Positions 10,511 to 11,321 of a stretch of DNA of 16,618 nt are shown piece by piece (within the stretch, counting starts at the first letter, position 1; the number at the start of each line of letters is the position of its first letter). The position numbers and the translations under genes were made by a program. The stretch comes from a virus. The notes beneath the pieces were generated by a model. It made no database searches and was not told where the DNA came from. It saw only the letters and a program-made list of their open reading frames with translations. Location: UHGV virus genome UHGV-0216076; one strand, written 5' to 3'.

Positions 10511-10834
10511 ATGGATGCACAAACACGCCGCCGCGAACGTCGCGCAGAGAAACAGGCTCAATGGAAAGCAGCAAATCCCCTGTTGGTTGGGGTAAGCGCA
10601 AAACCAGTTAACCGCCCTATTCTCTCGCTGAATCGCAAACCGAAATCACGAGTAGAAAGCGCACTGAATCCGATAGACCTTACGGTGCTGGCTGAATACC
10701 ACGAACAGATTGAAAGCAACCTGCAACGTATTGAGCGCAAGAATCAGCGCACATGGTACAGCAAGCCTGGCGAACGCGGCATAACATGCAGAGGACGCCA
10801 GAAAATTAAAGGTAAATCTATATCACTTATTTAG
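10511..10834 (+). CDS. N: Antitermination protein N
   Basis: 107-aa ORF matching lambda N ([39 protein letters not shown]...), including the arginine-rich boxB-binding motif. Confidence 0.95.
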
Positions 10835-11321
10835 AAAATGCAGATTTAGGGAACAGATAGGAGGCGTTACACCTATGGCATCTCATCCTATGGTTAGAAG
10901 GTGGTGCAAATCCTTCGTATTGAAGTATGGATTTCACAGAAGATTCATAGCATTGAGCGCAAAGATAGTGCATTGGCTGACCGGTATTTGCCGATTTTTT
11001 GAGACGATAAACCACCGTAGCAACAGTAGGTGTATACATCTCATAGTTTTTCTTTTCCTCTTCCCACTTAGAGGCTCGATTTATCTTTTCTTCAAGCTCA
11101 ATAATCTTGTCCTTAGAAATCATCAAAAGCTCATTAAGTGACATTTGCTGCTGTTGGGCATCCATGAGCTTATCGACAAGTTCGTATGTTTTTTCTTTTA
11201 CTGAGTAGTCTATTTGCATTTTCTGGATTTCCTTTACTGCGCCAACAGCACTCATCAGAGCACCTCCGGCACCAGAAACTGCATCTGTAATCCTACTTAT
11301 TATTCCTTTTTCATCAGACAT
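10827..11321 (-). CDS. Hypothetical 164-aa protein in the sieB slot: Gly/Ala-rich N-terminus, coiled-coil middle, Cys4 zinc-ribbon-like C-terminus
   Basis: Convergent with N and overlapping its 3' end by 8 nt; ATG at 11321 (the listed ORF starts at an upstream GTG); CAQC...CHRC Cys pairs; AT-rich relative to flanking lambda-like DNA; no homologue recognised. Confidence 0.6.

Follow-up and report, generated by a model that had tools for sequence, protein, structure and literature searches.

The minus-strand gene at positions 10827-11321 of a 16,618-nucleotide stretch of viral DNA (UHGV-0216076; the whole stretch is referred to as the window) can be identified, with a probability of about 93%, as rip1, a single-protein prophage defence in which sensor and effector are combined in one product. 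The encoded protein is identical at 163 of 164 residues, over its full length, to Rip1 of Escherichia phage HK446 (PDB 9OOX), for which a structure has been solved and a mechanism published. The gene is therefore not uncharacterised, as a first-pass annotation of the DNA had suggested it might be, and is not in itself new. The same annotation had proposed a prophage-expressed exclusion or abortive-infection factor, and in this it was right in kind, Rip1 being an abortive-infection-type defence encoded in the sieB slot and provided with its own promoter. The case is of value for validation, as a true defence gene was flagged from position and sequence features alone, without tools.

Identification and architecture of the encoded protein

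The open reading frame, 164 codons long, starts at the ATG at 11321, ends with the TAA at 10829-10827 and is convergent with gene N, as had been described. A GTG start at 11330, three codons upstream, would give a product of 167 aa; the 164-aa form agrees with the HK446 annotation and with the 164-residue PDB chain. A Shine-Dalgarno-like AAGAGAG was read from the sequence at 11330-11336 on the minus strand, 8 nt before the ATG.

A phmmer search against the PDB produced one match, 9OOX 'ring interacting pore 1 (Rip1)', of 164 aa, with an E value of 1.4e-105 and residues 3-164 aligned. The sole difference between the two proteins lies at residue 97, which is Y in the window and H in 9OOX. The entry, released on 2026-02-04, is a cryo-EM structure of HK446 Rip1 with the small terminase of Enterobacteria phage T6, and contains 12 Rip1 chains; the original description of Rip1 is that of Patel, McCarthy, Taylor et al. 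(Nature 651:1060-1067, 2026, doi 10.1038/s41586-025-10075-1), summarised in a 2026 review (PMC13434031). A combined AlphaFold and Foldseek search, proposed in the first-pass annotation as a check, led to the same protein. With 20 homologues as input, the AlphaFold2 model reaches a mean pLDDT of 69, rising to about 80 in the C-terminal domain. It retrieved from the PDB chains M and L of 9OOX at E values of 2e-17 and 3e-16 and at 99% identity; for chain M the target-normalised TM-score is 0.85. The full-length homology to a characterised protein seen in the phmmer match is the finding that the first-pass annotation had itself named as refuting its proposal. Beyond 9OOX nothing was found in the PDB below an E value of 0.7; the other Foldseek matches, SH3, KOW and EF-P-like small barrels at E values of about 0.8 or higher, were discarded as not interpretable.

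Searches of Pfam, NCBIfam and PADLOC gave sub-threshold matches only (PDE12-like_N, E 0.027; Zn_ribbon_4, E 0.087; PDC-M53B, E 0.019), while the PHROGs collection contains a clear match, phrog_1244, of 'unknown function' (E 4e-53). When 1.84 billion cluster representatives were searched with a profile, at least 2,962 clusters at 50% identity were recovered with E values up to 1e-3, 1,387 of them at E values up to 1e-10; among the cluster matches listed, most are 150-175 aa long and cover nearly the whole profile. The earlier statement that no homologue was recognised is overturned by the PHROG match, by the size of this family and by the essentially identical protein of solved structure.

The layout of Rip1 is present in the AlphaFold2 model and in the hydrophobicity profiles: an amphipathic N-terminal helix that does not qualify as transmembrane is followed by a long helix and, at the C-terminus, by the domain assigned to ring binding. 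The Gly/Ala-rich N-terminal helix, proposed to be the membrane-inserting, pore-forming part, is encoded by codons 6-34 (11220-11306, minus strand) and modelled as a helix at residues 7-34 with low pLDDT. At 0.42, the hydrophobic moment of residues 7-24 is unmatched elsewhere in the protein, and hydrophobicity is moderate, with no stretch of transmembrane grade: the maximum Kyte-Doolittle mean over 19 residues is 1.28, under the usual cut-off of 1.6, in agreement with the earlier remark that no classic transmembrane helix is present. The matched 9OOX chains contain only 124-126 residues, which suggests that part of Rip1 was left unmodelled in them.

Codons 39-90 (11052-11207, minus strand) correspond to a single long helix in the model, previously described as a coiled-coil middle part; L48, L76 and W86 are conserved there in 88%, 95% and 92% of 160 aligned family sequences (the query plus 159 others, 140-200 aa long). 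The beta-rich C-terminal domain, which would be the ring-binding sensor half, is encoded by codons 93-158 (10848-11045, minus strand; strands predicted with pLDDT of about 80). It carries the four cysteines C121, C124, C148 and C151, and the CAQC-x23-CHRC motif reported in the first-pass annotation was indeed located at residues 121-124 and 148-151. In the same alignment C121 and C124 are found in 160/160 sequences, C148 in 158/160 and C151 in 159/160; W86, Y93, Y105 and H118 are each conserved in at least 90%. The CxxC-x23-CxxC pattern is thus near-invariant and set in a beta-rich structure; the weak Zn_ribbon_4 match falls on residues 146-162. From its conservation, the Cys4 motif may bind zinc.

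The single substitution leaves room for the reading that the window carries an inactive or re-targeted copy, in which Y97, or the context of a mosaic prophage, alters or abolishes the activity of HK446 Rip1. Residue 97 stands where the C-terminal sensor domain begins, and an alignment of close homologues shows variation there. However, phages ev099 and vB_EcoP-720R6 both carry the Y97 form with 100% identity, all E. coli genome matches listed are 100% identical in DNA, unlike what is seen in gene decay, and reading frame, promoter block and Shine-Dalgarno sequence are intact. An altered copy is accordingly given a very slim chance, and the Y97 variant is expected to behave as HK446 Rip1.

Genomic position and relatives

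The window contains a lambdoid immunity and early-left region, in reversed orientation relative to the lambda map. On the plus strand, a cI-type repressor gene (9317-10018) is followed by a nutL boxB hairpin identical to the lambda form (GCCCTGAAGAAGGGC, 10228-10242), located upstream of N, and by the gene for a lambda-type antiterminator N of 107 aa (10511-10834), about 97% identical in DNA to lambda N and named N in HK446. The boxB hairpin was also flagged on the minus strand by the terminator scan, where it could act on the rip1 transcript after antisense passage through N.

The 3' ends of rip1 and N share 8 nt. The two stop codons had been said to overlap by this length; the overlap of the gene ends is real, but the stop codons themselves, TAG of N at 10832-10834 and TAA of rip1 at 10827-10829 on the minus strand, are separate. 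On the other side, directly after the terminator described below, lies a plus-strand ORF for an acidic protein of 82 aa (11573-11821), in the position of lambda ral/ea10, reported as 'hypothetical' in the HK446 GenBank record. An 'anti-restriction protein' is listed among the features under the HK446 RefSeq (NC_019714) match, and may be this ORF.

Downstream of N/24, the slot is occupied on the opposite strand by sieB in both lambda and P22, as the first-pass annotation correctly stated. The same annotation had considered the gene AT-rich compared with its flanks and had taken this as a sign of separate acquisition. The G+C content is 39.6% in rip1, 49.4% in N and 47.2% over the window; as the early-left DNA on the other flank (11573-12400) is at 41.3%, rip1 stands out as AT-rich on the N side but not on this one, and the compositional argument is weak. 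A stronger argument for separate acquisition comes from the mosaic structure, the same promoter block being found in front of differing cargo.

Proteins 99.4-100% identical to that of the window were detected by tblastn against phage genomes in the coliphages HK446, ev099 and vB_EcoP-720R6. The HK446 gene agrees in length and upstream region and is likewise flanked by N and, at its other end, by the 82-aa ORF and cIII; the 1.5 kb around rip1 are 99.7% identical to HK446. The prophage as a whole differs from HK446 in its mosaic, 49% of the window being covered by HK446 and 62% by Sf101 and by vB_EcoP-720R6.

More distant relatives were found by the same search in some E. coli myophage records (53% identity), in Mu-like Casadabanviruses of Pseudomonas (D3112 orf25, DMS3-25, JBD30, MP38 and others; about 30%) and in HK620, HK629 and HK630, where the protein is named HkaP (27%). 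The Casadabanvirus gp25 proteins share with the window protein the length class, the Cys4 motif and a cargo slot on the opposite strand, with a pairwise E value of 7e-26 for DMS3-25. They are located in the small/large terminase slot of DMS3/D3112-type phages, matching the location reported for Pseudomonas Rip1; the reported escape mutations differ for the latter, falling in the portal and not in the small terminase (review PMC13434031). HkaP of HK620 is also 164 aa long, lies in the same slot and on the same strand and retains the four cysteines, but is highly diverged (E 3e-13) despite a near-identical promoter. A homologue with 45% identity in a Proteus prophage is found on the opposite strand between an S24-type repressor gene and early-left recombination genes. 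Homologues thus occupy the sieB slot of lambdoid phages in both HK620 and Proteus prophages, and the opposite-strand cargo arrangement recurs in HK446, HK620, Proteus prophages and DMS3. The pair formed by DMS3 2468-2995 and JBD26 2083-2334 offers a parallel to the exchange of sieB, rip1 and hkaP beside N of lambdoid phages.

Promoter region and transcription through the slot

The separate control region that had been predicted upstream of the gene was located by homology to P22. A minus-strand stretch at 11354-11384 corresponds base for base to the annotated 'P sieB' promoter (AF527608, 29690-29720), the P22 sequence TGTACCCCTACAGCGAGAAATCGGATAAACT being aligned to TGTACCCCTACAGCGAGAAAAATAGTAAAAT at 11384-11354 of the window. 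The -10-like hexamer TAAAAT (11359-11354) is nearer to consensus here than in P22. The rip1 promoter was placed solely by this homology, and a scan for the sigma-70 consensus gave no convincing minus-strand promoter upstream of the gene. Its conservation makes it presumably active in this lysogen. The start of P22 sieB transcription is said to have been mapped by RNase protection by Ranade and Poteete (in J Bacteriol, 1993), who reportedly placed the lambda promoter by the same homology.

A block of 58 nt (11365-11422, minus strand), conserved in front of different cargo genes, is 100% identical to lambda and 98.3% identical to P22 over its whole length; in P22 the aligned stretch shares positions with the 'P sieB' promoter as annotated. 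Counted back from the rip1 ATG, the first 104 nt are 99-100% identical in HK446, ev099, vB_EcoP-720R6, HK620 (99%) and HK630. One and the same promoter module thus stands in front of sieB (lambda and P22), the diverged hkaP (HK620) and rip1 (the window). As one promoter block serves differing cargo in these four cases, the coding sequence appears to be exchangeable, and the shared module is the clearest sign of this; a PsieB-type promoter common to sieB, rip1 and hkaP marks the slot as a swappable defence cassette.

Slot, orientation and promoter, all held in common with sieB, would also be expected if the protein were a SieB-type exclusion factor, that is, a membrane protein diverged beyond recognition which aborts infection as SieB of lambda and P22 does; hkaP of HK620 in fact bears the annotation 'putative superinfection exclusion protein', for which its place in the sieB slot is apparently the reason. 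A direct comparison of the two proteins revealed no relationship: the best BLASTP E value against lambda SieB is 9.4, and no SieB family occurs among the Pfam, PHROG and NCBIfam matches. The transmembrane helix is absent, and the protein is identical, but for one residue, to Rip1, whose fold differs and whose trigger is a ring oligomer. The SieB reading is thus refuted at the level of homology, and is left with virtually no probability. What rip1 and sieB have in common, beyond an outcome of abortive-infection type, is slot and promoter, not protein ancestry.

The 10-mer ACCCCTACAG occurs in exactly two copies in the window, both on the minus strand, at 11338-11347 and 11372-11381. The second of these overlaps the upstream end of the promoter, while the first follows shortly after the -10-like hexamer. 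The pair is conserved in lambda, P22 and HK620, including where the sequence between the copies differs; the repeats could be regulator binding sites or part of the promoter architecture. A 7-bp inverted repeat, CTCTTAC/GTAAGAG (11331-11353), surrounds the 11338-11347 copy and extends over the rip1 Shine-Dalgarno sequence. As a regulatory hairpin it was rejected: its folding energy does not stand out from that of shuffled sequences (z score of -1.0), and a role in translational control is improbable. The transcription start predicted from the -10 hexamer, near 11345-11348 and about 7 nt downstream of the hexamer, would fall in the 5' arm of the repeat. Upstream of the promoter block, at 11442-11469, a near-perfect palindrome (GTGTATTCA...TGAATACAC) was observed, which is shared with HK620, while the lambda and P22 sequences differ there. 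It may serve as an operator-like site or, on either strand, form an RNA hairpin.

The terminator scan identified a strong intrinsic terminator of the PL operon on the plus strand at 11530-11559, formed by TTGCCCTCCAATGTGAGGGCAG (stem at 11530-11551) plus T8, which aligns with a stretch of HK620 annotated 'tL2A'. PL transcripts proceeding past N read antisense through all of rip1 and then meet this terminator, where those formed without N-mediated antitermination would end after their antisense passage through rip1. A search of the whole window against Rfam at gathering thresholds found no RNA family, and hence no known antisense or small RNA element.

If anything is novel in the window, it may be the way in which the gene is deployed. 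A near-invariant module, made up of the 58-nt block and the two ACCCCTACAG copies flanking the -10 hexamer, is used for several unrelated or highly diverged defence cargos, which might reflect a common regulator or a 'boundary' at which cassettes are exchanged by recombination; in addition, convergent PL transcription might silence Rip1 during the lytic cycle of the prophage itself and so provide self-immunity. This combined proposal is put forward tentatively and is on the whole doubtful, and either point may already be treated by Patel et al. If Rip1 were indeed shut off in this way, an anti-Rip1 protein would be unneeded. In the ORF list of the window, no small co-oriented partner gene is evident beside rip1. 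P22, which carries the membrane protein SieB, makes a self-protecting product, Esc.

Mode of action and prevalence

The review PMC13434031, which summarises Patel et al., describes Rip1 as harmless by itself and as a sensor of late morphogenesis products that causes premature lysis, infected cells rounding up. [quoted passage not shown] Twelve Rip1 monomers assemble around the 11-mer ring of the small terminase, which is contacted by the C-terminal half, the N-terminal part being an amphipathic helix; a pore is present in the complex, dye is released from liposomes and holes are seen in cells. Homologues are described as widespread in proteobacteria, chiefly in prophages. The same account is given briefly by a meeting report and by the Avs2/Upx paper. 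Ring templating, the 11:12 stoichiometry, the pore and the defence phenotype are thus taken from literature, and refer to the H97 form; identity, layout, conservation, slot and promoter homology are results of the present analysis. These results, in particular the amphipathic N-terminus, the conserved Cys4 sensor half and the genomic locations, fit the published account.

By extension to the window, the lysogen would transcribe rip1 from its own sieB-type promoter, against the repressed PL operon, building up a pool of harmless monomers. A superinfecting phage entering late expression would then accumulate ring proteins, either the 11-mer of the small terminase, in coliphages such as T6, or the portal, in Pseudomonas phages. 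The Cys4-containing, beta-rich C-terminal domains would bind around the ring, which would template a 12-mer Rip1 collar, and the N-terminal amphipathic helices, brought together in this way, would form a membrane pore. The inner membrane would be breached and the cell would lyse before virion maturation, aborting the infection. The N-terminus would accordingly act on the membrane although it is not a transmembrane helix, and the function deduced in the first-pass annotation was correct in kind.

Small prophage-encoded defences directed against late morphogenesis proteins also include Tab (JBD26 gp31) and TerI (Listeria phi10403S), which block assembly or packaging without a pore, have anti-defence partners and are unrelated in sequence to Rip1. 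Tab occupies, on the opposite strand, the same terminase slot as the Pseudomonas Rip1 homologues. By analogy with these systems, the window protein might sequester rings of small terminase or portal and thereby block packaging or assembly, membrane damage being secondary. Such a mechanism would suit the stoichiometric binding of an essential packaging protein by Rip1 and the finding that, in DMS3-type Pseudomonas phages, the family fills the slot where JBD26 has Tab. It is at odds with the rounding of cells, with the holes in them and with the leakage of dye from liposomes exposed to complexes of Rip1 and small terminase, all described in the review PMC13434031, and in its pure form would leave the conserved amphipathic N-terminus without a role. 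Homology to Tab, suspected from the shared slot, was discarded, as BLASTP gave no alignment of the window protein to the 83-aa JBD26 gp31 at E values up to 100. Defence mainly by sequestration is therefore considered very unlikely, and pore formation by Rip1 is retained as the mode of action.

A rip1 gene with at least 99% identity is present in 96 of 5,426 complete E. coli genomes, always in the chromosome. Among the matches listed, 12/12 overlap an annotated N gene, and the gene is labelled 'hypothetical protein' in RefSeq; similarly, all named matches in a large protein collection are 'hypothetical' and carry no Pfam domain. PADLOC 2.0 (2023) and NCBIfam 20.0 contain no Rip1 model, and a HMM built from the family, with its thousands of clusters, would allow the gene to be annotated across many genomes.
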